39,319 nt of DNA from Elsinoe ampelina (taxonomy: Eukaryota), in NCBI GenBank assembly GCA_010093995.1, contig ML992542.1, positions 1 to 39,319 on the forward strand, in the 5' to 3' direction. The notes beneath the pieces are model-generated. The model was given only the letters and a program-made list of their open reading frames with translations. It did no database searches and was not told the origin of the DNA. The translations under genes were made by a program, and so were the position numbers. Below, piece after piece: positions 230 through 38,327 of this stretch (the first letter of the stretch is position 1; each line of letters opens with the position of its first letter).

Positions 230-1388
230 TCAATGCGTGCCTTTCTTGCCAGCACTCCTGCCAGCCAAGATCCACGGCCGTCGCTCCCAGAAACCGTCTT
301 TGATGATGTCCACGTGCTCGGCCACGAGCGTGGCCTTGAGCTTACGCTTCCTTTCTTTGTCCAGCTGCGTCTTTGAGGGTGGGGCTGTGGTGGATGTGCT
401 GGTAGTATTGGTCGGTGGGCTGGTAGTGCTGCTGTCCGGGCTGGTAGTACCTGCATTCCGGCTGGTGGTTTCGGCCGAGGATCTGGAGGTGCCCTCAAGA
501 GGGTTGGTAGTGCTTGACGAGCCGGTAGTGTCCGAAAGCTGGTTGGGATTAGTCTTGATGTGGTAGGAGCATTGTCGTGGGAGTGCTCACGTCTCGATAG
601 ATCACCGTCCCCTTTTTGTACACTTCTGGCTCGTTGTTGTAGTTGATCCCGAAACGGGAGAAGAGGATCTCGTTCTTGTCCGCTGAGAATGTACCCTGTT
701 ACGGTCAATTAGTTTGTCTGTGGAGGGGATAGTGTATTGTGTCACCTTCAGCTCAAGCTCGGCGTCCGTGGGGCTCTGACCTCCTTGATTGACCATGGCC
801 CAGAATGTGGTGTTGTAGAGATTGTTGACGTGGCAATCTGCTTGTCTCCAGGAGAGATAGTCCCGCATGGTCTTGATGTTGGGATAGAGCACGTGGCGTC
901 CGTCGAAGGTGGGATAGGGTTCCGTCAGAGGTTCGTCGGGGAAGAACTTGGGCCATTGGAGAGCGTATTGTACGGAGAAAGTGGAGACAATGGTGGTCAC
1001 TAGTTTCCTGAGAGATGTGAGGTTGGGAAGTAGGGGCAGCCGGCATGGGTGCTTACTGTGCGCGGCGTTCGAAGAGCTGGGTATCTTTGTGGAAGACGAA
1101 GCTAGAGGATCATCAGCAAGCACAACAATATCATTTTGAGAGATAAAGCGACCTGTACTCATCACTCTGGCCATAAGCGACTACGATATCGACAAGGCTT
1201 CGCATCGTTTCGAGTGCTGCCGAATTCATGAGGTCGATTGCCCGCTTGTCATTTGGTTTGACAAAGTTGTAGCGTTTGGTAAATTTGCTGAAACCCCTGC
1301 CATCGAGTCTGACTACTATCCATGTATCTGGTAGTAGCACGTCGGTCTGCTCGAAGAAGCGAGTGTACTCAAACTCGCTGTTGGCCAT
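230..1388 (-). CDS. THG1: tRNA(His) guanylyltransferase; exons 1388-1153, 1101-1057, 1007-746, 695-591, 538-230 (318 aa)
   Basis: Thg1 motifs [94 protein letters not shown]. Four GT-AG introns join the ORF-track fragments in frame. Confidence 0.93.
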
Positions 1389-8583: not shown

Positions 8584-9129
8584 GTTTGAGGATGGTTGTC
8601 GGGCTAGTCGAGGAGCCTCTCATAAAAGTAAGCAGTAATACACTCGAGTGATCGACATTTGACGCGCTGCGGGGCGCTGGACCAAGGGGACCTGACGGGG
8701 ATTCAATGGGGGCGATGGGGCCTTTTGACGGGGACCTGACCCGGTTTTTGATCACTCGCATCCTGGGCAATCTTGGGCAATCTTGGTTCGCCTGACCACC
8801 TCACCTGCACGACACCTTGAATCATCTGAACAAATGGCATACCTGGCCGTATCATCCGGGACAAGCGATGTACATTCACCGTGCTGCACGCCAGACCCTG
8901 CTCGCGTACATGGTGTCGAAACCGACTCCAGACGCTATTAATGGTGGCCAATCAATCACATTCATCACATGCGCCACATTGGATGCATGAAGATCATGTA
9001 TCTCAGCCGTGGCGTCTGCGATAGGGACTCCGTGTTTCTCCCTTTCGCGTTGCGCGACGTGTGAGGTCCAAGCGATATTTCCTCTCATCTCTCGTACCCT
9101 TCCTGTTCCTTTACACACGATGGCTAACC

Positions 9130-12100
9130 ATGGAGGAAACGACCGACAAGCAGAAGTACACTGTTGGTTGGATATGTGCTCTGCACAACGAATACTTCGC
9201 CGCTCGCGCTTTCCTCGATGAGAGGCATCCATCGCTCGATGCCACGTCGCATGCCGATAACAACGACTACACTCTCGGTCGAATCGGCAAGCATAATGTG
9301 GTCATAGCCGTCTGTCCAGATGGTGGTTACGGAAATACCTCAGCCGCACATGTGGCACGTGATCTGGTGCACACCTTTCAGAATGTTCGTCTGGGGCTCA
9401 TGGTCGGCATAGGCGGAGGTGCGCCCTTCCCACCGGAACGGGATATACGCCTGGGAGATGTGGTAGTAAGCTCGGCTGTTGGGGGGCTCGCTGCTGTAAT
9501 CCAGTATGGCATGGGCAAAAAACGGCAGGGTGTCACCGGCCAAGAGACTTGGAGGGAGACTTTTGAGATCACGGGGCAGCTCGATCGTCCGCCAATGGCA
9601 CTGCGGACAGCAGTGAATGGTCTCAAAGTCATTCATCAAGAATCTGGCAACGGCATCTACGACAAGGTCGAAGTATTATTGAACACTTTACGGAAGCCCG
9701 TGCGAAAAGAGTACCAAAGGCCAGCCGCCGACACTGACTTGCTGATGCAAACCGACTTTGTCCACCAGGAAGACGCAAGACACGACTGCAGCATTCATGA
9801 CAAAGCTCACATCATCGTTCGCGATGATCGAGGAGTAGGGGAAGATTTGGTCGAAGTCCACTACGGTCCAATTGGTTCCGCTGACACAGTCATGAAAGAT
9901 GCCAAGCTCAGGGACGACCTTCGCAGGAGTCATGGTCTGATTTGCTTCGACATGGAAGCAGCTGGATTGATGAACCACTTTCCCTGTCTGGTCATTCGTG
10001 GCATAGCCGATTACTCAGACTCTCACAAGAATAAGCAGTGGCAGAACTACGCTGCCATGACTGCTGCAGCATACGCTAAAGAATTGCTTCTACAGCTTGT
10101 ACCACGAATGATTGAGAACCAGCCAACCATTCAAGACCTACTCAGCCTGCGTATGTATCCAACTGACCAAGCAAGATGATTTCGCTGACATATCATTAGA
10201 GACGCGTGTAGTAAACGACGTCACTGAGGTTCGAGAAGCTGCTGTCGTCACGCACCACAGGCTTGCGAAGATCGACGGAGATAGCAAACAGTCGCAATGG
10301 CTTCGATGGCTCAATCCTGCAGATCCGTCGGTCAACTACAACAAGGCCAAGGAAGATCATCATCCCGGTACTGGCCGGTGGCTGCTGGATCACCAGGCAT
10401 TCAGAACATGGTTCAGCACGCCGGGCAATTTGCTATGGTTGTACGGAGGTCCCGGTGTCGGCAAAAGTGTTCTATGCTCGGTGGTGATCGATTGGTTATT
10501 CGCATCTGACATCGACCAGAGGCGCATTGCGTACTTCTACTTCCATTTCGCAGATTCTGGAAAACAAGCACTCGAAGATGCCATTCGATCATTAATTTGG
10601 CAGCTCAGTGTAGCCTCACGAGCGAATATGGACAGCTTCGAACATTTGTGGCAGAGCTGTAAAAATGGTCAATACCAACCGTCCCTGGAAAGTCTGAATC
10701 AAACCCTCACGCAAATGCTGCAAAGCGATGGTGATTCTTGGATCGTCCTTGATGCATTAGACGAATGCCGGTCAGGGGGTGGGTCTCAAACATCCGGCGT
10801 GCTTCCTTGGATCCGATCAATTCTGCAAGCGACAGATCGTGTATACCTTCTTACGACCAGCCGCCCTACGCACGATCTACAATTCAATCGCCTTAATTTA
10901 ACATGTTCCCAGAGCATGGTCGAAGTCAGCTCGGCTCAGGTGACGCAAGATATCGATCACTTTGTGAGCAGTTATGTCAGGACTTCTGAGAGTCTGCGGA
11001 GATGGAGAGCAATACCGGTCATTCAGGAGAAAATAATCCGCACCTTGGTCGCTGGTGCCGATGGAATGTGAATTTATCACCTTCTGGACAGCATTCCGAA
11101 CGCTGACATTGTCCAGGTTCCTGTGGGCAGCTCGCCAACTTGAGGCTTTGCGACCATGCCTCGACAAAAGGTCTCTTCTGGCAGCTTTGGCTGACTTACC
11201 CAAGGACCTTTACATGACCTATGATCGAATCATCCAGAACACACCTGCGGAGCAGACAGAGCTCATGGTCAGATTACTTCAATTCCTACTGTACTCAGAG
11301 CGGCCTCTTCGCCTTGCCGAAGCGGTCGACGCCCTCGCTGTATCAACCACATCAGCCACAGAATTCGATCCGTCGGACAGAATGCCGCAACCAGCAGAAA
11401 TCACAGCTTTTGCACCTGGCCTGATAGTCGTTGCCGGAAGGGAGAACGATGGCTCAGACCATCATGATGGGAGGGAAGTCCGTCTCGCTCATCACACCGT
11501 CAGAAATTACCTCCGGACAAAGCCAAATCGGCATATCCTGCCGTTCAGCTTCGAATCGCAAACCTCACGGGCCGCCGTGGCAGATGTTTGCCTCGCCTAT
11601 CTTTGTGGCATAGACATGAGCGGAAACGTGGACGCCATTAACGAGAAGTACCCATTTGCTGGTTATAGTGCTGAATACTGGGCTAGCAACCTGAGAGGCA
11701 TCGAGGAAGTAAATGTCTCCCTCTTGTTTCGAGCAGAGAAGCTGATGACAAACCACGGACGATTCGAGAAACTCGTTCATCTACATTCACTCGACCGGAG
11801 CATCTTGCCATTTGCTACAATTGAAGAATTACCGCTTTACCACGCAGTCACAAGAGGTTTGCCGAAGCTAGTGGAGATGCTACTTATGGTTACGACCGAT
11901 ATAGATGCCGTAGCAGGACGATTGGGTAGTCCGCTTCATGCAGCAGCCTACCATGGTAACGTGGCAGTGGCACGCGTCCTGCTTGAACATGGCGCCAACG
12001 TAAACAATCCCTTCGGTTCTCTTGGCTCTGCCGTCCGCATTGCGTCCTGGCGTGGTCACCGAGAAATGGTGCAGATCCTGCTTGAGTGCGGCGCGGATGC

Positions 12101-13380
12101 CTTCCTGCAGCCCAGGGGCTACGCATCGATGGATCACGGCGTCACTCCATTGCCGAGCAGGAATCTCGACGCTGCAGACATGTCTGCATCACTCTTCGAC
12201 CCATTACCAGTGACAGGGTTCGAGTATGACGAAGCGGTCGACTTTGCAGCGTCACGAGGGATAAGTGGTTTGGTGAATTCTTTGTTGAGCGACAGCACGG
12301 GAAATGAGCTTCACGCCAGGTTGAGTCAAGCTCTCAACGCAGCAGCCAGTCATGGTCATCTGGATCTCGCCGCGCATCTCATAGAAGATGGTGCCGACGT
12401 CAACGCCAGGACCTCAAAGTATGGAAGCGCACTTGGCGCAGCCGCGGCTTCGAACAGCCCAGCGGTAGTGGAATTGCTATTGGATCGTGGCGCGGACATC
12501 GATACCTTCTGCCGGCCCGGCGTTACGGCCCTTCATGTTGCCATCATTAGCCGGCACTTTGCAGCCATCGACTTGCTCTTACGACGAGGAGCCAGCGTGA
12601 ATCTTACTTGTGGCGGCAAGTTAGATGTGATCAACATCGCTTGGATGAGTGGAGACGGTGACATTATGAGACTCCTCAGATCACACGGTGCTCCAACGAC
12701 CAATCCTTTCGGCGCACCATACCAGCTCATGCTGTTTTCATGCCTGCCACGGCCGGACCTCGAGGAAGAGCTTCACGGTTTTGACATTGATACTGTAGAC
12801 CTCCTTGGCAGATCCGCACTGCATTTCGTAGCGTTGCGAAATGTCGAGGATGGAGGCGCATACACGATTGAGTCCCTGTTGAGAAGAGGGATGGACGTCA
12901 ACAACAGCGACAACCAAGGCTGGACCCCGTTACATTGGGCCGCACACTTGGACAATATTCCAGTCATGCTAGAGTTATGCAGGCAAGGCGCGGATGTGAA
13001 CCTCGAGGACATCCACGGTTGCACAGCGCTCGCAATTGCTAGAATAGGAGCAGCAGACCGTGCAGCAGAAGTCCTTTACGAGAAGGTCCAATGCGGTAGC
13101 AAAGAACTTGGGCCTTCTCGAGAGCGAAAGTCATTTCTTCCATTATGCGATTGCTGTACAAAGGTAAGCTGATACTCGCAAGACTTTGTCCTTATTGGTA
13201 CTGATCGACGAGAAGCGCCTGGTCGACAGCCAATACCACTGTACGGTTTGTCCAGATTACGATCTTTGCTTTAGATGCATCGAAGACGCTGTGTTGATCC
13301 ACCCCGGTCACACCTTTGTGGACACATTCAGGTACAGTGGTGAAGAGATGGCCGACGCCCTTCACGATTCGTTTTGGTGA
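9130..13380 (+). CDS. Fungal NLR-like STAND protein: PNP_UDP phosphorylase-like effector, NACHT, ankyrin repeats, C-terminal ZZ zinc finger; exons 9130-10150, 10200-11067, 11117-13163, 13216-13380 (1366 aa)
   Basis: PNP_UDP motifs YTVGWICAL, YTLGRIGKHNVVIA, GLMVGIGGG, DIRLGDVVVS, CFDMEAAGL, LVIRGIADYSDSHKNKQWQ. Walker A GGPGVGKS, Walker B WIVLDALDE, GMFLWA. Ankyrin units SPLHAAAYHG, TALHVA, TPLHWAA. ZZ CDCC..YHCTVCPDYDLCFRC..HPGH. Three introns restore one frame. Confidence 0.92.
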
Positions 13381-14320: not shown

Positions 14321-15955
14321 TCAAACATCCCCCCTGTAGCAGTACTTGTCGAAACACGCGGAACACGCATCCGGCAACTTCCCCCCGGTCTTGCCCACCA
14401 ACGCACACCCAAGACACCTCCCCCACCCCTCGGTCCCATTCTGACTCGCCACCAGATTGCCATTCGCGATGATCCCCCTCGTCTGCTCCCTGCTGAACTG
14501 CACCTGGTACGTACTGGCGTTGCTCGGGAAACTATACGCCGCGTTGGGCAACCACACGATGGTCAACTTGTCCTTGTCGTCGCAGCCGAAGAAGACGGCG
14601 CGCTTGTTGAGCCCCTGCGCGACAAAGGTCTCGGGCGGCGGGACGGCGGGCATTTTGGTCAGGCCGGCGGATTGGGCGGCGAGGTAGGTGTTTCGGATTT
14701 GGACGCCCGAGGGGAACGAGTCGTCGGTGTCGGCGGTGTTGTCGCTTACGATCAGGGCGGTGACGGGGCGTTCGGGTTGGAGGAATGGCCAGATGGGGTT
14801 GATTTGGTCGTTGAGGCCGCCGTCGGCGAGGTAGAGGGTTGGTTGGGAGGAGACGGACGGGGAGGAAGGGGATTTGTAGAAGGGGTTGGGGATGTTGGCG
14901 AGGAGGTTGGTGGGGCTGGAGGGGATGAGGCCCGAGAGGACGCCGATGAGGGACGAGTTTTCGGCGGGGTAGGGGAAGCAGTACAGGGAGAAGATGTCGG
15001 AGCTGGTGCCGAACATGTAGCCGAGGTTGTCGAAGTTGGCGGTGCATTTGTTCGGGTTGGTGGGCTGAGAGTTGGTGAGGGAGGTGCCGAGGAAGGCGGT
15101 GGAGGTGAAGGCGCGGATGCCGTTGTCCCAGGAGCCGAATTCGTAAGGGGTGAATTCGTATTGCGTGCTGCTGGGGATGGGGGTGCATTGGCCGGCGCCG
15201 GTGTCGACGCTGAGTGCGGTCATGATGGGGAAGGGGACGTTGAGGGAGGTGAAGTTGGACTTGCTGGCTTGGCCGGAGAGGCGTTCGGAGACACCGCCGT
15301 TGGGACCACTAAGGATCTGATGAGAGATGAAGCGTCCCCAGGCATCAGGAATGGTGGTGTTGAAGCCAGCGGCATCCTTGGCCTTGAGGTCCATGGCTAC
15401 GGTGTTGTAATCGGAGCTAGCCAGCATGATATTTGCCACAAGTGCATCGTCTTGGAATGCATCAAGCCAAAGGGTGTCTCGAAGCTTAGAAATGGTCGGC
15501 CAGTTGTTGCCAGACAAAGACGAGAGGAGCCATGCGCCACCAGAGAGACCGGCATAGTAGGTGAGACCCTGGAAGAGACCTGAGGTGGCAAGGTTGCTGT
15601 CACGTCCGTCAAGACCTTGGACGACACCGGCTCCAGCAAGCAATGCACGATATCCACCGCCAGAGGAAGTAAGGCCGACGACAGGTAGGTTCGTGGTGTC
15701 GAAAGCGGGGTCGACCTTCTTGAGCCATGCAGCGAGGGCAGCGTTGGCTCTGAGCGTGCGTCCTGCGACGTAGGTACTTTCGGCTGTAGACAGACCCTTG
15801 GCGGCCCTGTTCAGGCCAGAGACAGGGCAAGAGACCGAAATTGGAGCATAGTCTGATTGAGACTGGCGGTTAGTGAGTCCAAGGCCACCGACAGCATCTT
15901 TAGCAGCAGTGGCGAGAAGTGCGACCGAGGCCACTATGTTGGAGACTGGTGCCAT
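14321..15955 (-). CDS. PLB1: Secreted lysophospholipase / phospholipase B (PLA2_B family), single exon, 544 aa
   Basis: Signal-peptide-like MAPVSNIVASVALLATAA; SGGGYRA, catalytic GLSGGAW, YEFTPYEFGSWD, FDNLGYMFGTSS, LADGG. No hydrophobic GPI tail. Start placed at ATG 15955, not the longer ORF-track start. Confidence 0.9.
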   Translation of the reverse strand: MAPVSNIVASVALLATAAKDAVGGLGLTNRQSQSDYAPISVSCPVSGLNRAAKGLSTAESTYVAGRTLRANAALAAWLKKVDPAFDTTNLPVVGLTSSGGGYRALLAGAGVVQGLDGRDSNLATSGLFQGLTYYAGLSGGAWLLSSLSGNNWPTISKLRDTLWLDAFQDDALVANIMLASSDYNTVAMDLKAKDAAGFNTTIPDAWGRFISHQILSGPNGGVSERLSGQASKSNFTSLNVPFPIMTALSVDTGAGQCTPIPSSTQYEFTPYEFGSWDNGIRAFTSTAFLGTSLTNSQPTNPNKCTANFDNLGYMFGTSSDIFSLYCFPYPAENSSLIGVLSGLIPSSPTNLLANIPNPFYKSPSSPSVSSQPTLYLADGGLNDQINPIWPFLQPERPVTALIVSDNTADTDDSFPSGVQIRNTYLAAQSAGLTKMPAVPPPETFVAQGLNKRAVFFGCDDKDKLTIVWLPNAAYSFPSNASTYQVQFSREQTRGIIANGNLVASQNGTEGWGRCLGCALVGKTGGKLPDACSACFDKYCYRGDV

Positions 15956-17223
15956 GTCGAGAGGTGGAGAAGCAGTCGGTGAGGGTAAGGGTAAGAGTGA
16001 GTGCCTACCTCGGGGCTTACCTTGTGATCTTATATCGTACCTTGACTCTTTACGAAGTAGGACTGGTCCTTTGCGAGATTGGATCATGTAGTGTTGGACC
16101 GAGTTCGTTTGAGGTAGGGTTGAGAACGGGTGCATCGTGTATTGGCAGTTTCTTGAGTTCAGATATGATCGTTGACTTGTGGGTCTGAGGGCAAGGCGAG
16201 TGGTACCGGTGGCAGGACCGGAGAATAGGAGGAGGATCTGCGACGAGCTAAATTAGATGTCAGTGGTACCATCAGTATGGCCATGCGAGTGTGAGTGCCA
16301 GGTGGTGAGCTAGACCGTAGAGCTCATGTTGAGTTGTTGTCATGAGGTCGAAAGGCTTTGCAAAGGCTTAGCCATGACTGCGGAGTTGCTGCCACGTTGA
16401 TTGCTAAAATAATGACGATTGCACAACGGTCTGCAGTCGAAGTTTGAGTCGAAGTAGACGAGAAAGGAGTGTTCGACCGACGACTTCTATTTTCGCCGTT
16501 GCAGGGAACGGCCGGAGGCACAAGTCTGTCTCAGTCGCACCAATCTCGGTGGATGGGGACGTTCGGTTCGTATTTCTACCTCATGCTGAAGCCGAGGTGC
16601 ACTAGTCAGAGTTGAACGGGTTTCGCTCAGTAGAATGAGATACCAGGCTTGCTTCGTTAGTGCGCTGTGCATGGCTGTAAAGAGTGACCACCTACTGTTT
16701 CTGTACGGGTTTACTTGTCCATGTTCGGCGGGTACGCTGAGCTACGCTCCAAGTCTGGGTAGGAGGGGTGAGGGCAGAGTCACTCGACCGATGAGACAGC
16801 AATGATAAGCTTTTGTATAATATTAGACCTGTCAGGCCGAGGCTTGTGGATATATGCGAAGATATCCAAAGAGGCTACAGTATTGCGATCTGGCGACGGA
16901 GTAAGCCCCAGTCGTGCGACACCCCTGCAGCCGTCTCACCGAGACGAAGACCCCTCGAGGAGATCATCACTCACCAGCAGCAGCAGCAACGTCTATAGCA
17001 CTCACACACATCAGCAGACAAGTAATGAATCCATGGACTATCCCTCTCGCTTTCCGATAGCCTGCCCTTCGCTTCGCAGTTCAATCCGCCGGGCGCAAAG
17101 ACTCCCCACTATGACATGAAAATTCTGCATACCATGACCCACCAACAAGCGCACAATGATCGAAATGAAGAATCCTCTCCAGTACCCAGCAAGAAGCCAG
17201 ATAAAAACTGATGAAAATGCAAT

Positions 17224-17465
17224 GTTCGCGTCAGCCAGAGGCAGTGCAATACTGGCGACACAGTGCCAACTGACATGAGCAAGCTCAGCGGTCAGTCGAC
17301 GAGATAGAAAAATAAGGATAATCTTAGAAGGGGTCGTAACCCCGTTTCAGAGATTAAACTGAAAAGAACAGATACTACACTTGATCTAAGCCAAACTGTG
17401 AAGACATTAGTGACTATCCATGGTGAGAAAGGGGAGGGATTTTGACATACAGGCAAAGAGAGCTG
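17224..17465 (-). ncRNA. U2: U2 spliceosomal snRNA, split gene: exon 1 ~17465-17451, intron 17450-17396, exon 2 17395-~17224
   Basis: Spliced sequence CAGCTCTCTTTGCCT|TTTGGCTTAGATCAAGTGTAGTATCTGTTCTTTTCAGTTTAATCTCTGAAA is the conserved fungal U2 5' end, including the branch-recognition GTAGTA and stem IIa. It is followed by stem IIb GGGGTTACGACCCC, an Sm-like ATTTTTC, stem III, and stem-loop IV GCCAG-TATTGCACTGCCT-CTGGC. Mature length about 187 nt; ends approximate. Confidence 0.96.
17396..17450 (-). other. 55-nt spliceosomal intron inside the U2 snRNA gene
   Basis: Donor GTATGT (17450-17445), pyrimidine-rich interior, branch point CACTAAT (17412-17406), acceptor CAG (17398-17396). Exact removal restores GCC-TTTT-GGC of U2 stem I. 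Confidence 0.92.
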
Positions 17466-17512
17466 AGGAGAAAAAAAAAAGAGAAAGAGAAATGGAAATG
17501 ATAGAAGAAGTG

Positions 17513-17520
17513 CTTATATA
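17513..17520 (-). promoter_or_regulatory. Probable TATA box of the U2 gene
   Basis: TATATAAG on the minus strand about 50 nt upstream of the U2 5' end, followed by a pyrimidine-rich tract. Confidence 0.55.
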
Positions 17521-18283: not shown

Positions 18284-19910
18284 TTAGCTATCCTCGTCAT
18301 CATCCTCCACAATCGCCCTCCTCTTCTTCTTCCTCCCTCCGCTCTCCTTCTCCTCAATAGCCTCTCCATCCTCCCCTTCGTCTTCCTGAATCTCAACCCT
18401 CTTGCGCCTCTTTTTCGTGCTCGGGGTGCCATTTGTCCCGTTCGAAGCTCCAGCAACCTTCTCACGCTTCTCGACACTCTCGAGGAGCCTCTCGTAGTCT
18501 TCCTTCAGACCGTCCACAGCTGCATCAACCTTTTCAACCCTCTCCTCCAGATCCAGCTGTGCTAGCGAGTCTCTGTTGAACTGGTAAAGCCTCTCCTTGG
18601 CCAGCAAGCGCCAGAAGTAATACTGTCGATCTGCCTCACTGCTACTCTTCTCCTTTCTGGTGATGCGTGAGGTAGATCTGTTTGGTCGCGGAATCGTGCT
18701 GAGGAGTTGCATCTCGATCAATCGGCTGAGCTGACGTGACTGAATCTTTGTCTCTTTGGCCAGCTTTGTGCGTGTTTCTTTGGGAAGAAGCAGATCGAGC
18801 GGTATCTCTTCCCCTGGTGCGAGAGCGGAAGAAGGTATCGAGGTCGGGAGCCGAAGAGATTTGAAGGTTGAGTTGGTAGATCGCAGGTAAACCATGTCTG
18901 CAATGTCCCGCATGTCGTCAAAAGCAGCATTTGGGTCCTCGACTGTGAGTTCTGTGATGTGATCGGGAGCTGTGAGATGCTGGTAAATGATCGAGTACAG
19001 CCGTGACCCTAGACCGGACCTTTGCCGTGAAGGTAGAAGGATGACTTGTGAAATGCGTTCCCGTGATGACAAGGAAAGTGGTGATGGCTTTGATGAGCTT
19101 GGATCTGACCAAGAGGAGACAATCTTGTCAAACTCTGCTTCGGGATGTGGTTGAAGTGTAGACTCGAGCTCATCGCCCCTCGCAGGTAGAGTGAATGCCT
19201 GAAAGGATGTGACATAGCCGGCTATGATGTACTTGGAGGTCGAGGGCGGCGGTGAAGGATCAACTTGGTACAGTATGAAGAGCTTCCACCTATCGACTAT
19301 CCAGGGGTACTCCAGCTCCATGATCGTTCCTCCTTCGATGAATAATGGCACCAGTATTTGCATATTGGTGATCAACTCTTTCGTCCGTGTATCAGAGAAG
19401 GGTGCCACCCACACCTCGTATGTGCCATCTCTTGCCTCAAACGTCTCCAGTCTCTTCCCAGGTGGTACAAAGTTTGGCGCATCTGCATCTGCTAGCGCGG
19501 TCTTGCGGTCGATCTTTTGGAAAGCTGTCGGCGGCAGAAAGTCTTCGAGTGGCTCGCGCACATCGGTAGCTCTTATCTCGCCTTGTGGTTCGAACTCTCT
19601 GTCCCATTTGATCTCGAGATGTGGTTTGAGGTTATGCGCTGCGTAGCTCAGGGATATATTTAATCCTTGGTATCCAAAGATTGCTTCTTCCTCGCCGTAG
19701 ATGGGGTATGTAAACTCTGGGTTGAATGATTCGACTTTCCGGTCGCCTTGGTATATGTTGATCGTGAATGCTTCATTACTGTTTGTTGACCCTGTACCTG
19801 ATCAGCACTTACTGCCGATCATTCGCAGTTCCCGGAGCTCACTTACATTCGCCGACTTGATCTTGAATTTGCTTGACTAGCCCCGAATCATCCTCGCTGT
19901 CGGACGCCAT
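18284..19910 (-). CDS. HAT1: Histone acetyltransferase type B catalytic subunit; exons 19910-19847, 19791-18284 (523 aa)
   Basis: EWSTNSNEAF, FNPEFTYPIYGEEEAIFGYQGL, MQILVPLFIEGG, RERISQVILLPSRQRSGLGSRLY, ELTVEDPNAAFDDMRD. Intron GTAAGT..CTGAT..CAG at 19846-19792. Confidence 0.92.
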
Positions 19911-25212: not shown

Positions 25213-27327
25213 TCATGAATCCTCCGTCTTCACCCCCTCGACCCTGACCTCTTCTGACTTTAGATCTTCGGCCTTGACGTCCTCCATCTTCACGTCTTCC
25301 GTCTTCACATCCCCACTCTCCTGCTTGATCGCGACATCTTCGTTCTCTGCCTTCACCTCCGACTTTGCCTTTACCTCCGACTTGGCCTCCGTCTCCCGTC
25401 TGCCGATTGGGATCTTCGTCGCCTCATACCCTTTGCTCGTGAGATACAGAAAATGAGGCTGGTTGTAGTTGTCGATGTGGTTGAAGAACTGATGGAACCT
25501 GTACACCAGTCAGCAAAACATTCCCTTTCATCTGCTTGAGCTTGCAAGCATGGTACTCACGTATTCGCCCCCCTCTCCTCGTCCCATATCCGCCCATAGA
25601 TCTGCTCGCGCTTGAACTTTTCAATCTTCTCATCATGTTTGCCAAAGTCCAATTGCTCTCTGCCGAACTTCTGCGCTTGGTTCTTGTTGTACGTGTCGAA
25701 TACGGGTCGCTCGAGCAGCAGCCCCAGGCCGGGTACCTTGGGGATGCTCCATTTCTCCTTGCCATAGGATTCGTTGATGCGTTTGGGGGCATCGGCGCCG
25801 CATCGCACTAGCAGGGTGACCATTCCGACGAGTTTGCGGATTTGGTGCATCATGAAGGATTGCCCGTGGACTTTTAGGGAAAGCCACTCTGTACCTTCGA
25901 TGATGATGGGCTCGGGGTTGACGACAAAGGATTTGATATTGCGTTTCGCTGACGGATCGGTCGGGGCTTTTTGGATGGTGTAGTTGTGGAAGTTCTTCGT
26001 GCCGACATAGGCGGAGAGGGCGGATTGGATGAGGGCGATGCGAGCTGGGGAGATGCGGTAGCTGCGACGGGCGGAGTCGTATGCGGCTTTGAGACGTTTG
26101 GTGGCTTGAAAGAGGGCTTCGCGCTTGACAGGGCCGAGGATGCTTTGCTGGGACGGAGCGTCTTCGGTCGGGGGCGGTGCCTCGTCTTCTTGGGGTTCCT
26201 CTTCAGGATCTTCATCTGGGTTGCGTCTGCCTTTGTCCTGTGGTCGTTTGGTGTTGGAAGAGTCGATATCGGCGATGCCGCGAATGTAGCTGTCGTCGCC
26301 ACCAAGAGTGATGCCGTCCCAGCGAGGGAAGAGGGCCCTGACGACAAGCTCGCGGATCTCGTCGTCCAATTCGTCCAGGATGGGCTTGATGTGTTTTTCT
26401 TCTACGTCAGGCCAAAAGTCCTTGATGTCCTCCTGTCTTTGAGCCATGGCCTCCGAGTCTCCAGTCTCCTCTGCATACCTTGTACAAACCTGGGCGAGAA
26501 AGCTGCTGGGATGTGGAGAAATGAAAGAGTTTGACGGAATCAAGTACTCATACCACCGACTGTCCACAGCTTGATAGCATGAAAAGCTGTTGATCGTACG
26601 CTCGATGCCCCAGACCCTTATCTGAGGAGACAAGTGTTCGTTGATCTTGTCCACTATGTCTTCGTCTTCAACGATGAGCTTCAGTGAGATCATGTTGCCC
26701 GCAGCATGAACGCCTTTGTCTGTTCGGGCGCATCTAACAAGACTAGACTTCTTGGGATCGTCGGCATTGGCCTTTGAAATGGCACCTGCTTTGACAAAGG
26801 CCGTGAAGAGATCGCCTTCGATGGTCCGTTCTGTAGGTGATCTGAGCATGTCAGCTTTGGATTGGACTGGTAGAAATGACCTTGCTCACATTTGCATGCC
26901 CCGGTATCCTGTCCCACTGTAGCCAATCAGAACCGCAACCTTCTTCTTGGGCCTTCTGTCCTCAGCAGCGATCTCTTCCTGGGCGTATGCGGACGGGAGG
27001 ACCGATGGCTTGTCGCCGTCCTTCTCGCGCTTTTGCTTCTCGTGCTCGTTCCTTGATCGCTTGTCCATTTTCTCACGCCTGTTCCAAGAGTCAGAGCCAT
27101 GAAGGATCGCATGCACCACAACGTACATACTGATAATCCTTCCGTCCCAAATCTCGTTTCTTACCACGGCTACCATGTCTTCCGCGGTCATCTTCGAACC
27201 GTCTCCGCTTCCTGTCTGCATGTGATCCAGCACCTCCCTCAGAGTCAGGTGACCGATCTCTCTTTGTGTTGGGAGACCTCTGGTTATTTGCCTCCACGGC
27301 GACTGCCGAATCATTGTCGACCGCCAT
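25213..27327 (-). CDS. PUS1: tRNA pseudouridine synthase 1 (TruA family); exons 27327-27131, 27078-26890, 26841-25561, 25498-25213 (650 aa)
   Basis: RPKKKVAVLIGYSGTGYRGMQ, catalytic RCARTDKGVHAAGN, GTKNFHNYT, HGQSFMMHQIRKLVG, IPKVPGLGLLLERP; three in-frame introns. Confidence 0.93.
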
Positions 27328-32708: not shown

Positions 32709-34386
32709 CTAGTCCACTCCAGCATAAAGGTCGACGACGATATTGATGCATGCCACGACAATCTGCCTGAAGTTAGTACAATCAATGTGATGTCCAGTAA
32801 TAGACGACTTACCTCCGCGGCGATGAGTACGATCACGATCCATTCCAAATACTCTCCGTGACTGTGCGTCAGCTGATCTTTCAGCACTTGCAGCAAGTCG
32901 GCAATCACATCGAGTCGTTCGGTCAAGAGTCCAACCCGCTGATCCATCTCCAAGTAGCTGCGTACCGCTTGATACACAGGCTCAAGTTGAGGTTCCGCCC
33001 ACATCAGCTCCGGTGCATCAAGCACGGATCCCTGCAGATGGATGTTGATTCGTAGGATGAAGAGCTCGCCAATCTGCATGTTGATCTCCTTGCGTGTGAG
33101 CTTCACTCGCCCAGTCATGGCGATCGTCGATGGAATCTCCTTTGTCGTGTCAATCGTGTTGTCAACTAGGTCTTCGTATAGCGAGGTCTATCGCATGTCA
33201 GTTCAGTGTGTCTATGCTTATGGGTCAGACGTACTTTTGTGCTCTGGGCAAGAGCATGGCTAATGGCCAGCTTCGTCATGTAGTTCCGCTTCTCCCTCAA
33301 ACTAATGAAGTCATTGTATATCCGCGCCTGATACTCTTTTGTGTAGTAGAAGTTGAAGTTTTCGGTCTGTACATCGTCTTTTGCGAGCTTTTCGACCTCA
33401 AACTTGGCGATCTCCTTCAGAAATCTTTGCTCTTCCTTGACACTCATACCCCAAATTACCACAACACCGTACTCGAATAGGAAGACTTCCGGTATGTGTA
33501 CAGAAGTGTCGAAATCTGGTGTATTTTGTTGCTCGCCAAGGTCGGGCGTTGACGCAGATGGCGCAATCTCTTCTGCTGTCGAAGAGTCGCCCACGACAAC
33601 TTCACCATCTCGCGAATTCTCGCGCTGCAGATCAATAAGATCCTCACGTTGTCGCTCAGCGTGCTCGTCAACCTCCAAGGCACTATCTGAGAATCTCCTC
33701 TGTTGGGTCGAGTGCACTTCTGCCCGAGTTTGCTGATCTGATCGTCGTTCTGGCTTTGCATAAGTATATGGCGTGTAGATGCATTCGTCGAAAAGCTTTG
33801 GCGCGGCACTCTTTGTCTTTATTCTTCCTTTCAAAAAGCGCATGAGGTCATCCAGCCGGTATGTATTTGCAGTGCAGAACGCCGTGACACGCGGCAGCTT
33901 GTCTCTGTCATCTTTTCCCAATCGTGCCGCATCCCTCCTTGCTGTCGGATCCTTGATCCTTGTGAATTGCGAGTATACCTCGCGTCCACTCTCCTCATCC
34001 GGGCCATCTTCCCCATGTTCTGGGTTGGGAAGAAGTTTGAGCTTCTGAGCAGTCCGCGTAGTTCTCTGGGGTCCAATCTTGGATAATGGCGCGGCGGGTA
34101 CAGAAAGAGGAGCTCCTTGACTATTTCTTCTTCGCAATTTGCTGTTCAATGCTGACAGCATCGGTTGTCCTCCATCTCTTACTGTACTTTGCAGGCCGCT
34201 GATCGACCCTGTCGAGAGTGATTGAGTGTTCGGGAAGGAGGGTCTGCTTCGCGGCGGGCTTGAAGAGTCGACCTGAGTATTGAACGTGACGCTCCTTTGA
34301 GGTTTTCCGGGTGTAGGAGTCTTTCGTCCAGCTCCAGTGGCCTCCCCAAGGAGGGGAGTGGCCTCTGAAGTCGCTGCAGCTGCCAT
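32709..34386 (-). CDS. RMD1: Sporulation protein Rmd1 (DUF155 family); exons 34386-33235, 33187-32813, 32762-32709 (526 aa)
   Basis: KIGPQRTTRTAQKLKLLP, LPRVTAFCTA, EVFLFEYGVVVIWG, RIYNDFISL, KLAISHALAQSTK, IGELFILRINIHL, YLEMDQRV, LEWIVIVLIAAE; two introns. Confidence 0.92.
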
Positions 34387-35567: not shown

Positions 35568-38327
35568 ATGCAAGCGATCTTTCTCCCAAACTGCCACAAC
35601 GCAAATTCGAGTCGACTCCGCAATCGGATTCGAAGACCATTCGACGGTGTGCGCTTGCCCAAGGAGACGTCACGCATCGTTGGGCATCCTGTCTTTCTTG
35701 AACAGCATCTGCGAAGATACAACGGCGAAGACGTACACAGTGTGGCTGATTACCCAACCAAAGTGCCCAGGCTTCCGGCGGATCTATGTCCATCTTACGA
35801 AGACCAAGGCCCCTCAGACAATTCCATCGTCCCACCTGATGATAGGATGGGAGATCCCTCGCGATTACCTGACCAAATCATTAGAAAACAGCGCGAGCAG
35901 GCGAAGACGTGCTGTGGGCAAGTCTTTGGGACCTTGGCTCAAGTGGAGGCTCACCGCGCAAGTCAACATCCATCGCCACGAACGTCGACAGCTGCCCAAA
36001 AAGAGACACCCACCGTGACTTCTCAAAACGCAGTCAGCGGCATAGTACCGTCGGTAACTCCGAAGTAAGTCTTTGCCCTGATATGGTCATCAGGCCACTT
36101 CTGCCTATTTTTCCCATCGTGGCGTGGCTGACGTAGGCATCAGCTCTGCCTTGAGAGATGCTTCGATTAAGCCAGCAGTCTCTGATAATGCCTCCAATTC
36201 ACCAACGCGTTTGCTCTCTCGCTCTCAAACACCACAGACGACGAGCGCGGAAAATGCGCAGATGCAAATCTCGAGGCTCTCACTGGAAGAAGTTCCCGCC
36301 AATCTCACCGGCAAGCCTAGCGAGCTCGCCTCACATATCAAACGCACGAACACGAGTTCGCCATCCAAGAAGAGGCCTGCGAGCTCAGAGGTCTATGGTC
36401 ATCGATCAAGTGCGCCAAGATCCATACATCGACAGATCCCTCGTCGAACTCCCGTAGCCACTTCTTTTCGAGAACCGGATATCGCCACTGATGAGTTCCA
36501 CCGCGGTGAGCCACGGAGTAGGAACCTCTTTGACCCCAATAAGGCCGACTCTGTCACCAAAAGTTCATCTTCGCAGCAACAAGTCGCCTTCCGATCCACT
36601 GAGATTCCTTTGCGGGAAGTCAAATTTGATAGTGCTGATGGGCTACCCTCGTCGCTGAAGCGAGAAGCATCATCGAACAGTATTTCTAAAGATCAACTAT
36701 TTGCTGAGGTCAAGGGCTTATATCGAAGCTTGGAAATTGTCGAGCAGAGATGCATTCGCCTCGACCAAACTCATATGGCGGATAAGATGAAGCAGATGCA
36801 GCCGGAGGAGTGGCAAGCGTTAACTGCCCTGCATCGTACTCTGTTGTATGAGCACCATGACTTTTTGCTTGCTTCTCAACATCCATCTGCGCCACCAGAG
36901 CTCAGAGCACTTGCGTCTGAGCGTCAAATACCTTTCCGGATGTGGAAGTATGCCATTCATGCGTATCTGGAACTCTTACGACAGAAACTTCCAGAGTCAC
37001 TGGAGTTCATGGAGGCTTTCATATATCTCTCGTACCAGATGATGGCGCTTCTCTACGAAACAGTGACACTTTTTGAGGATGTTTGGACTGAATGTCTCGG
37101 TGACCTTGCTCGGTACAGGATGGCAATCGAAAATCATAGCATCAGCGTTCGGGAAGTATGGACCGACGTCGCTCGATACTGGTACACCAAGGCATCTGAT
37201 CGCCAGCCGATAGTCGGCCGATTATATCACCACCTGGGTATATTAGCACGACCTCACCTGCCTCAACAGCTGTATTATTATGCAAAGTCACTGTGTTGCG
37301 TCCAACCATTTGCGAATGCAAAGCACTCAATCAAGGCAGTGTTTGAGTCAGCTTCCCAAGTTTTGACCACGACATCGAGCGAGAAAAAGACCGACGCTCT
37401 TCAGAGACTTGACGCCACATTTGTGCAGATGCATGCGCAGCTATACGAGAAGCAGTCCGACACCCTGATCAGCGTGACGATTTCGCATGTACAGGTCCTG
37501 CTGCGTGAGAATCTTTCTCGTCCGGACAAGAAGTGGAAGCAGTATGGAGTATTTCTGATGATATCGAACGTGGCCGCATGCTTCAGCTATGGAGCTTTCG
37601 AGAATCCGCTCCGCCGTTCAATGGAGCAGAAGACATATGTATGTGACTATCGAGCTGTTTCTCTCGCCCTTACCACGCTGACCATGTCCTAGTCATCATC
37701 GAAGTCTTCTCCTTCTTCGGACGTCTGGATTCAGCTCTCCATCAGGGTTCTCTCGACAACTACGGACATCATGCTGGCCTCGAAAGATCATAAGAACATG
37801 TTACCACTGTTTCATGTCCTGCTGGTGGTGCTGGACAGCCTATGCAATGTCATTAGGAACTGCCATGAGGCAACAACACTTCTCGTCGCAATGCCATGGA
37901 TCGGCATCTCGGCGTACTTGAACGATCTGGCCAAAAGCAAAGACAACATGGCCGACCACGTCAAGAACGCCAGACCGGATCAGAAATTCATTCCACAAGT
38001 GAAGGAGGAAGCAAAACCACTGACGGAGGACTTCTCATTGAGGGGCTTAGTGTGGTGCAAGGACTATTTCCCAGAAGCTTGGTTCCGAGGGAACAGTAAC
38101 GACGAACTGCCGTTCCACGAGCCAGCCAGCTGCGAGATTGATCGTGCGCAGCGGTGCTTGTGGTTGGCAGTCAAGATATCAGCCGTAGGATTTCTCGTCA
38201 CATATGTAAAGGAACAAGCTAACCTGGACACCAGAAGTCAACGTACCTCAATTTTGACAAGGCGTCATGCACATTTGAGCCCTCGCTACAGGCCGATAAA
38301 GACATAGATCTCGTCGATGCGCCTTGA
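35568..38327 (+). CDS. Est1/SMG6-like TPR (Est1 DNA/RNA-binding) domain protein; proposed exons 35568-36064, 36144-37638, 37693-38184, 38235-38327
   Basis: LHRTLLYEHHDFLLASQHPSA, RMWKYAIHAYLELLR, FIYLSYQMMALLYE, WTECLGDLARYRMAIE, GRLYHHLGILARP, PLTEDFSLRGLVW. First exon and last exon are less certain. Confidence 0.8.

Follow-up and report, generated by a model that had tools for sequence, protein, structure and literature searches.

Evidence for a spliceosomal-type intron in the stem I loop of a U2 snRNA gene from a filamentous-type fungus

The DNA analysed here, in the following called the window, is a single stretch of 39,319 nt. Its sole match to an Rfam family, as determined by cmscan, is a U2 snRNA gene (RF00004) on the reverse strand, located within a 2-kb spacer between the ORFs of a lysophospholipase (PLA2_B) and of the histone acetyltransferase HAT1 (Table 1). 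In addition, the fungal HAT1 C-terminal domain matches the HAT1 ORF just below threshold (20.4 bits, cut-off 22). On the far side of the lysophospholipase ORF follows, in forward orientation, a gene combining PNP_UDP_1, NACHT/NPHP3_N and ankyrin-repeat domains in an NLR-like architecture. Such a PNP_UDP-NACHT-ankyrin arrangement is typical of filamentous fungi, and judged from its DNA the host looks like a filamentous fungus of ascomycete type. Within this gene we predict a 49-nt intron (10151-10199) and a further change of frame near 11040-11070. Two more ORFs of the window may be mentioned. One, at 25563-26840 on the reverse strand and about 8 kb from the U2 gene, encodes a PseudoU_synth_1 protein (tRNA pseudouridine synthase); in yeasts, U2 is a substrate of this enzyme family, and the proximity is probably due to chance. 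The other, at 36145-37638 on the forward strand, encodes an Est1 DNA/RNA-binding domain (telomerase/NMD factor family) and has a predicted intron on either side (79 and 54 nt).

Table 1 Positions of the U2 gene, its parts and its neighbors in the window, and of the corresponding gene on the metagenome contig L007.
Sequence	Feature	Position	Strand	Evidence or remark
Window	PNP_UDP_1, NACHT/NPHP3_N and ankyrin-repeat gene	~9025-13172	+	Pfam
Window	Lysophospholipase (PLA2_B) ORF	14321-16252	-	Pfam
Window	Rfam match RF00004 (U2)	17407-17220	-	cmscan, model 1-192
Window	U2 exon 2: remaining stem I loop and 3' half, GUAGUA, stem-loops IIa, IIb, III and IV	17220..17395	-	Rfam alignment
Window	Sm-site-like AUUUUUC	17307..17313	-	Rfam and L007 alignments
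Window	Branch-point recognition sequence GUAGUA	17378-17373	-	aligned to invariant model columns, single-stranded region after stem I
Window	Intron, spliceosomal type, 55 nt	17396..17450	-	splice signals; L007 intron at identical position
Window	Acceptor CAG	17398-17396	-	
Window	Branch CACTAAT	17412-17406	-	branch A 17407, 11 nt before the intron 3' end
Window	Donor GTATGT	17450-17445	-	
Window	U2 exon 1 AGCTCTCTTTGCCT: U2 5' end, 5' half of stem I, first loop U	17451..17464	-	14 nt; 5' boundary inferred
Window	Pyrimidine-rich leader between TATA box and U2 5' end	17465..17512	-	sequence read; compared with L007
Window	TATA box TATATAAG	17520-17513	-	first T 56 nt upstream of the inferred U2 5' end
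Window	HAT1 histone acetyltransferase ORF	18284-19801	-	Pfam
L007	TATATAA	545-551		53 nt upstream of exon 1 start
L007	U2 exon 1	598-611		14/14 identical to window exon 1
L007	Intron	612-681		70 nt; GTATGT, GCTAAC, CAG

An earlier reading of the same DNA, made from its letters and in the following called the sequence-only reading, had proposed a U2 gene on the reverse strand that is split by 55 nt with the signals GTATGT, CACTAAT and CAG, and all these elements lie at the places it had given. When the Rfam U2 model was run on the genomic sequence, as that reading had suggested, it scored 131.5 bits against a gathering score of 46 (E-value 1.1e-26). From model position 16 onward the alignment is clean, and this part, covering positions 16-192, is exon 2. 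The first 15 model positions are mis-aligned: positions 1-12 were laid over 12 bases from the 3' end of the intron, positions 13-15 were deleted, and six non-standard pairs (marked 'v') appear in stem I of this contiguous genomic alignment. The segment absent from the contiguous match is supplied by exon 1, which corresponds to model positions 2-15. In the genome, the U2 5' end and stem-loop I are accordingly not contiguous, and they become so only after the intron is removed in silico. The placement of U2 by the sequence-only reading was right, with the end it gave, 17224, falling 4 nt inside the 3' end of the Rfam match at 17220. Its statement that all downstream stems are present holds in the Rfam alignment; the Sm site, however, reads AUUUUUC and not AUUUUUG. 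The TATA box that it had noticed upstream is indeed there.

The insertion point lies between Rfam model positions 15 and 16, within the loop of stem I. In silico removal of the 55 nt lets the first 32 nt fold as stem I with a GCC-UUUU-GGC top (-8.3 kcal/mol), in agreement with the earlier proposal that exact removal restores this structure. A snoRNA inside the intron was considered as well and ruled out, because 55 nt are too short. Nothing similar to the intron was detected by blastn elsewhere within the window.

For comparison with mRNA introns, we used a heuristic search for introns joining long open frames in the window. It returned 20 candidates, 14 of which measure 45-64 nt; their donors are GTAAGT, GTATGT or GTACGT, and CTRAY branches are mostly found 9-12 nt before YAG. 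Nine candidates were checked by Pfam on the flanking pieces. One of them (33188-33234, 47 nt) was verified exactly, as the DUF155 profile ends at position 85 on one side and resumes at position 87 on the other (profile 1-85 and 87-173). Two others (47 and 53 nt) interrupt a WD40 propeller that resumes behind them, which supports both; one fits an architecture of PNP_UDP followed by NACHT, and the remaining five are unverified. The U2 intron, with its 55 nt, GTATGT donor, CTAAT 11 nt before the intron end and CAG acceptor, falls within the size range and signals of these predicted mRNA introns, and the similarity in size and style that had been read from the sequence is thereby confirmed.

We then looked at metagenome contigs, which were scanned for exon 1 followed by a GTRWGT donor and, at distances usual for introns, by CTRAY as branch and YAG as acceptor. 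This pattern yielded ten loci. One of them, here called L007, contains a full U2 gene (137 bits), and no Rfam family was found in the remaining nine. Exon 1, donor, branch and acceptor of L007 were demanded by the search pattern and are hence not independent evidence. No demand was made on the U2 body behind the acceptor, on the TATA box, on the interior of the intron, which is unrelated, or on compensatory changes in the RNA, and these are independent. In both L007 and the window, the U2 body begins directly behind the acceptor and with the same nucleotide. Also in L007, a pyrimidine-rich leader lies between the TATA box and exon 1. In the alignment of the two upstream regions, the TATA box is among the few conserved blocks; its distance to the start of exon 1 is 56 nt in the window and 53 nt in L007. 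The part of the leader that adjoins exon 1 falls into a 41-nt block of 88% identity (window 17485-17445; blastn).

The introns themselves are unrelated in their interiors, with 39 of 70 positions identical in a forced global alignment. A blastn comparison of the window with L007 gave two HSPs only, one covering leader, exon 1 and donor and the other exon 2; between the two introns there was no HSP, and the 1,291 bases of L007 show no similarity to the window beyond the U2 gene and its leader. Stem I re-forms in L007, too, once its intron is removed in silico. As a side observation, the last 19 nt of the L007 intron (663-681) are able to mimic the 5' half of stem I by pairing with the beginning of exon 2, and Rfam lays this intron end onto model positions 1-15 with one flagged stem I pair only. 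Because the window intron has no such pairing, we regard this resemblance as probably coincidental.

The two U2 genes are well diverged. Their mature RNAs are identical at 152 of 191 positions and their 3' domains at 82 of 117. Among the 26 pairs predicted by RNAalifold for the 3'-domain consensus of the two sequences (stem-loops IIb, III and IV), 12 differ at both bases yet still pair, 14 are the same in both genes and not a single one is broken. This pattern argues that both genes have been kept foldable since they diverged, and both appear to have been under structural selection ever since. That two genes so far apart are both held to the U2 fold is evidence against a decaying pseudogene.

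This bears on the strongest competing explanation, according to which the gene in the window is a non-functional or minor U2 paralogue and the working U2 comes from an intronless gene elsewhere. The Sm-site consensus is RAU4-6GR, and the Sm-like site of the window departs from it by a C where L007 (AUUUUUG) and the Rfam consensus (AUUUUUgg) have G. This C, the sole blemish of the gene, could point to a weaker paralogue or a variant U2 copy. Fungi of this type can moreover have more than one U2 gene, as two predicted U2 loci are reported for Aspergillus fumigatus in the available text of a study of its non-coding RNAs (PMC2377427). We nevertheless consider this explanation improbable. The marks by which a pseudogene would be recognized, promoter loss, truncation and disrupted stems, are not seen: the TATA box is in place, the match is full-length with all stems intact, and none of the 26 pairs predicted for the 3' domain is broken relative to L007. 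The diverged relative, too, has exon 1, the splice signals and the TATA box, none of which would have survived decay.

Still less probable, in our estimation, is that the 55 nt are not spliced out, so that either a start further downstream yields a 5'-truncated U2 or the insert is retained as an expanded stem I loop. Nothing speaks for this directly, although stem I is retained, enclosing the insert, when the unspliced RNA of the window is folded to minimum free energy (MFE). In the unspliced L007 RNA, by contrast, the predicted fold does not keep stem I. Donor, branch and acceptor are complete and correctly spaced in both genes, whereas the interior is unconserved and differs in length (55 and 70 nt); this combination is typical of introns and not of structural expansions. 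The identity of exon 1 at all 14 positions, furthermore, is not expected for a segment lying outside the RNA. That a U2-like 5' fragment and splice-like motifs merely came to lie by chance upstream of a 5'-truncated U2 gene can be practically dismissed: the motifs are short, but the 17-letter motif of exon 1 plus donor, expected 0.03 times per window at up to two mismatches (dinucleotide shuffles), occurs once and exactly, on the same strand and one short-intron length (55 nt) upstream of the U2 body, the same architecture recurs in L007, and the same pattern, run as a control on 596 Gb of prokaryotic genome contigs and on viral contigs, matched 11 times, without U2 or any other Rfam family at any of these loci.

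We thus consider it very likely that the U2 snRNA gene in the window is genuine and belongs to a filamentous-type fungus, that it has a TATA promoter, and that it is split in the stem I loop by a canonical 55-nt GT-AG intron, whose position is kept in a diverged fungus. The functional-looking U2 gene with an mRNA-type intron put forward by the sequence-only reading finds its strongest support in L007, where an unrelated 70-nt intron occupies the identical position. In the comparison with this one relative, the position of the intron is conserved while interior and length drift. Because the position has been kept while the sequence changed, the intron appears to be a stable feature of the gene and not a recent accident. 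For the two sequences compared, one ancient gain followed by drift would account for interiors that are unrelated at a common position; repeated insertion at one favored site is a possible alternative.

Introns of the mRNA type are known from snRNA genes, and the window apparently adds to them a new site in U2 and a new lineage. The basidiomycete yeast Rhodotorula hasegawae is said to have such introns in its U1, U2, U5 and U6 genes. Its U2 intron, reportedly described by Takahashi et al. in 1993 (Mol Cell Biol 13:5613), is said to be 60 bp long and to be located just downstream of the branch-site recognition sequence. For U6, an intron in S. pombe was reportedly found by Tani and Ohshima in 1989, and Canzler et al. 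are said to have surveyed fungal U6 introns in 2016. The U2 genes of R. hasegawae and of the window are alike in having a short GT-AG intron in the conserved 5' region, for which reverse splicing near the active site offers an interpretation. They differ in that the R. hasegawae intron reportedly lies downstream of GUAGUA, whereas that of the window is found on the upstream side of this sequence, within the loop of stem I. In further contrast to R. hasegawae, the site described here is common to a second, diverged fungus, and its host looks like a filamentous ascomycete.

In the available text of a 2018 review on U6 (PMC5855946), the 1993 report by Takahashi is the only case of a U2 intron cited. 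The full-text literature we searched, which did not extend to the original Rhodotorula paper and the 2016 U6 survey, contains no report of a U2 intron outside Rhodotorula. Likewise, it contains none for ascomycetes, where the supplements of PMC2396436 and PMC2377427, beyond the reach of this search, may show one. The supplement of PMC2396436 concerns predicted sequences of fungal snRNAs, with introns marked by 'i' in Figure 1, and that of PMC2377427 an alignment of Aspergillus U2. According to the accessible part of the A. fumigatus study, U2 was not cloned and was 'only partially' aligned, the two predicted loci measure 276 and 277 nt, and the sizes seen in northern blots differ from the predicted ones (PMC2377427). 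An unrecognised intron in the A. fumigatus U2 genes is a possibility that would explain both the partial alignment and the northern mismatch.

Similarities extend to other small RNA genes of fungi. Fungal U6 introns also have canonical signals within a spliceosomal snRNA, their sequence is otherwise unconserved, and some of their positions are common to related species. As would be the case for the U2 gene described here, the snRNA needs the spliceosome for its own maturation, according to the available text of the U6 review (PMC5855946). The differences are that U6 is a Pol III transcript, another RNA and interrupted at another site, whereas U2 is a Pol II transcript of the Sm class. The introns of fungal U3 snoRNA genes, as in S. 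cerevisiae and Neurospora, are described in the accessible part of a 2017 survey as short and spliceosomal, located almost exclusively in the 5'-most stem-loop and at lineage-typical positions (PMC5832005). The same part of that survey names U3 and U6 as the only small structured RNAs then known to be often interrupted by introns (PMC5832005). The resemblance to the window is that of a TATA-driven small RNA gene with a short spliceosomal intron in the 5' stem-loop, as far as this source describes it (PMC5832005); unlike U2, U3 is not a component of the spliceosome. When compared with canonical, intronless U2 (RF00004), the RNA of the window agrees after removal of the intron in its 5' end, stem I, GUAGUA, stem-loops IIa, IIb, III and IV and the Sm-like site, and it differs in that the gene is split and the first 15 model positions are mis-aligned.

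Based on these features, the gene would be expressed as follows. Transcription is probably by RNA polymerase II, driven by the TATA-box promoter and with a predicted start near A17464. Among 21 sequencing runs listed for the window, two DNA runs contain 0.96 of its sampled words and three putative RNA runs with the same organism label 0.33-0.42, shares that carry no weight for splicing or expression. The primary transcript would carry the 55-nt intron inside the loop of stem-loop I, and the spliceosome would join the 14-nt exon 1 to the 176-nt exon 2, so that the mature U2 would measure about 190 nt. The intron itself may have originated by reverse splicing near the catalytic core. By the textbook numbering of U2, we take its site to be between two U2 segments, one pairing with the 3' end of U6 (helix II), the other pairing next to its AGC triad (helix Ia/Ib). 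Because 55 extra nt split these two segments, unspliced U2 is unlikely to be functional. If all U2 copies carry the intron, new U2 would need existing U2 snRNP, and a feedback loop through the maturation of U2 by itself is plausible. The U6 sides of the U2/U6 helices are given in the available text of the 2018 review (PMC5855946). The same logic holds for the fission yeast U6 intron, for which this review raises regulation by splicing as an idea.

A more far-reaching possibility is that the stem I loop intron is old and clade-wide in a large group of filamentous ascomycetes, that it is present in every U2 copy, and that it was overlooked through mis-alignment by covariance models. The A. fumigatus U2 loci described above are one lead in this direction; we state the possibility tentatively and think it rather doubtful. 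Were it clade-wide, however, U2 biogenesis would depend obligatorily on pre-existing U2 snRNP, the efficiency of pre-U2 splicing would be a homeostatic sensor of spliceosome capacity, and the insertion point, a few nt away from where U2 pairs with the AGC triad of U6, would be a relic of reverse splicing at the catalytic center.

Spliceosomal RNAs seldom contain introns, and those that occur provide natural evidence, through the reverse-splicing hypothesis, on which RNA parts belong to the active site. The second, different site in U2 that is common to two diverged fungi adds a data point beside U2/U6 helix I and suggests that stable inheritance of snRNA introns is possible in U2. Because Rfam annotation gives the split U2 as a full-length match with a wrong 5' end, such a feature is easily missed in the annotation of fungal genomes. 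For these fungi, the finding implies that production of a core splicing RNA may depend on the splicing machinery itself, as a self-dependence or feedback circuit.
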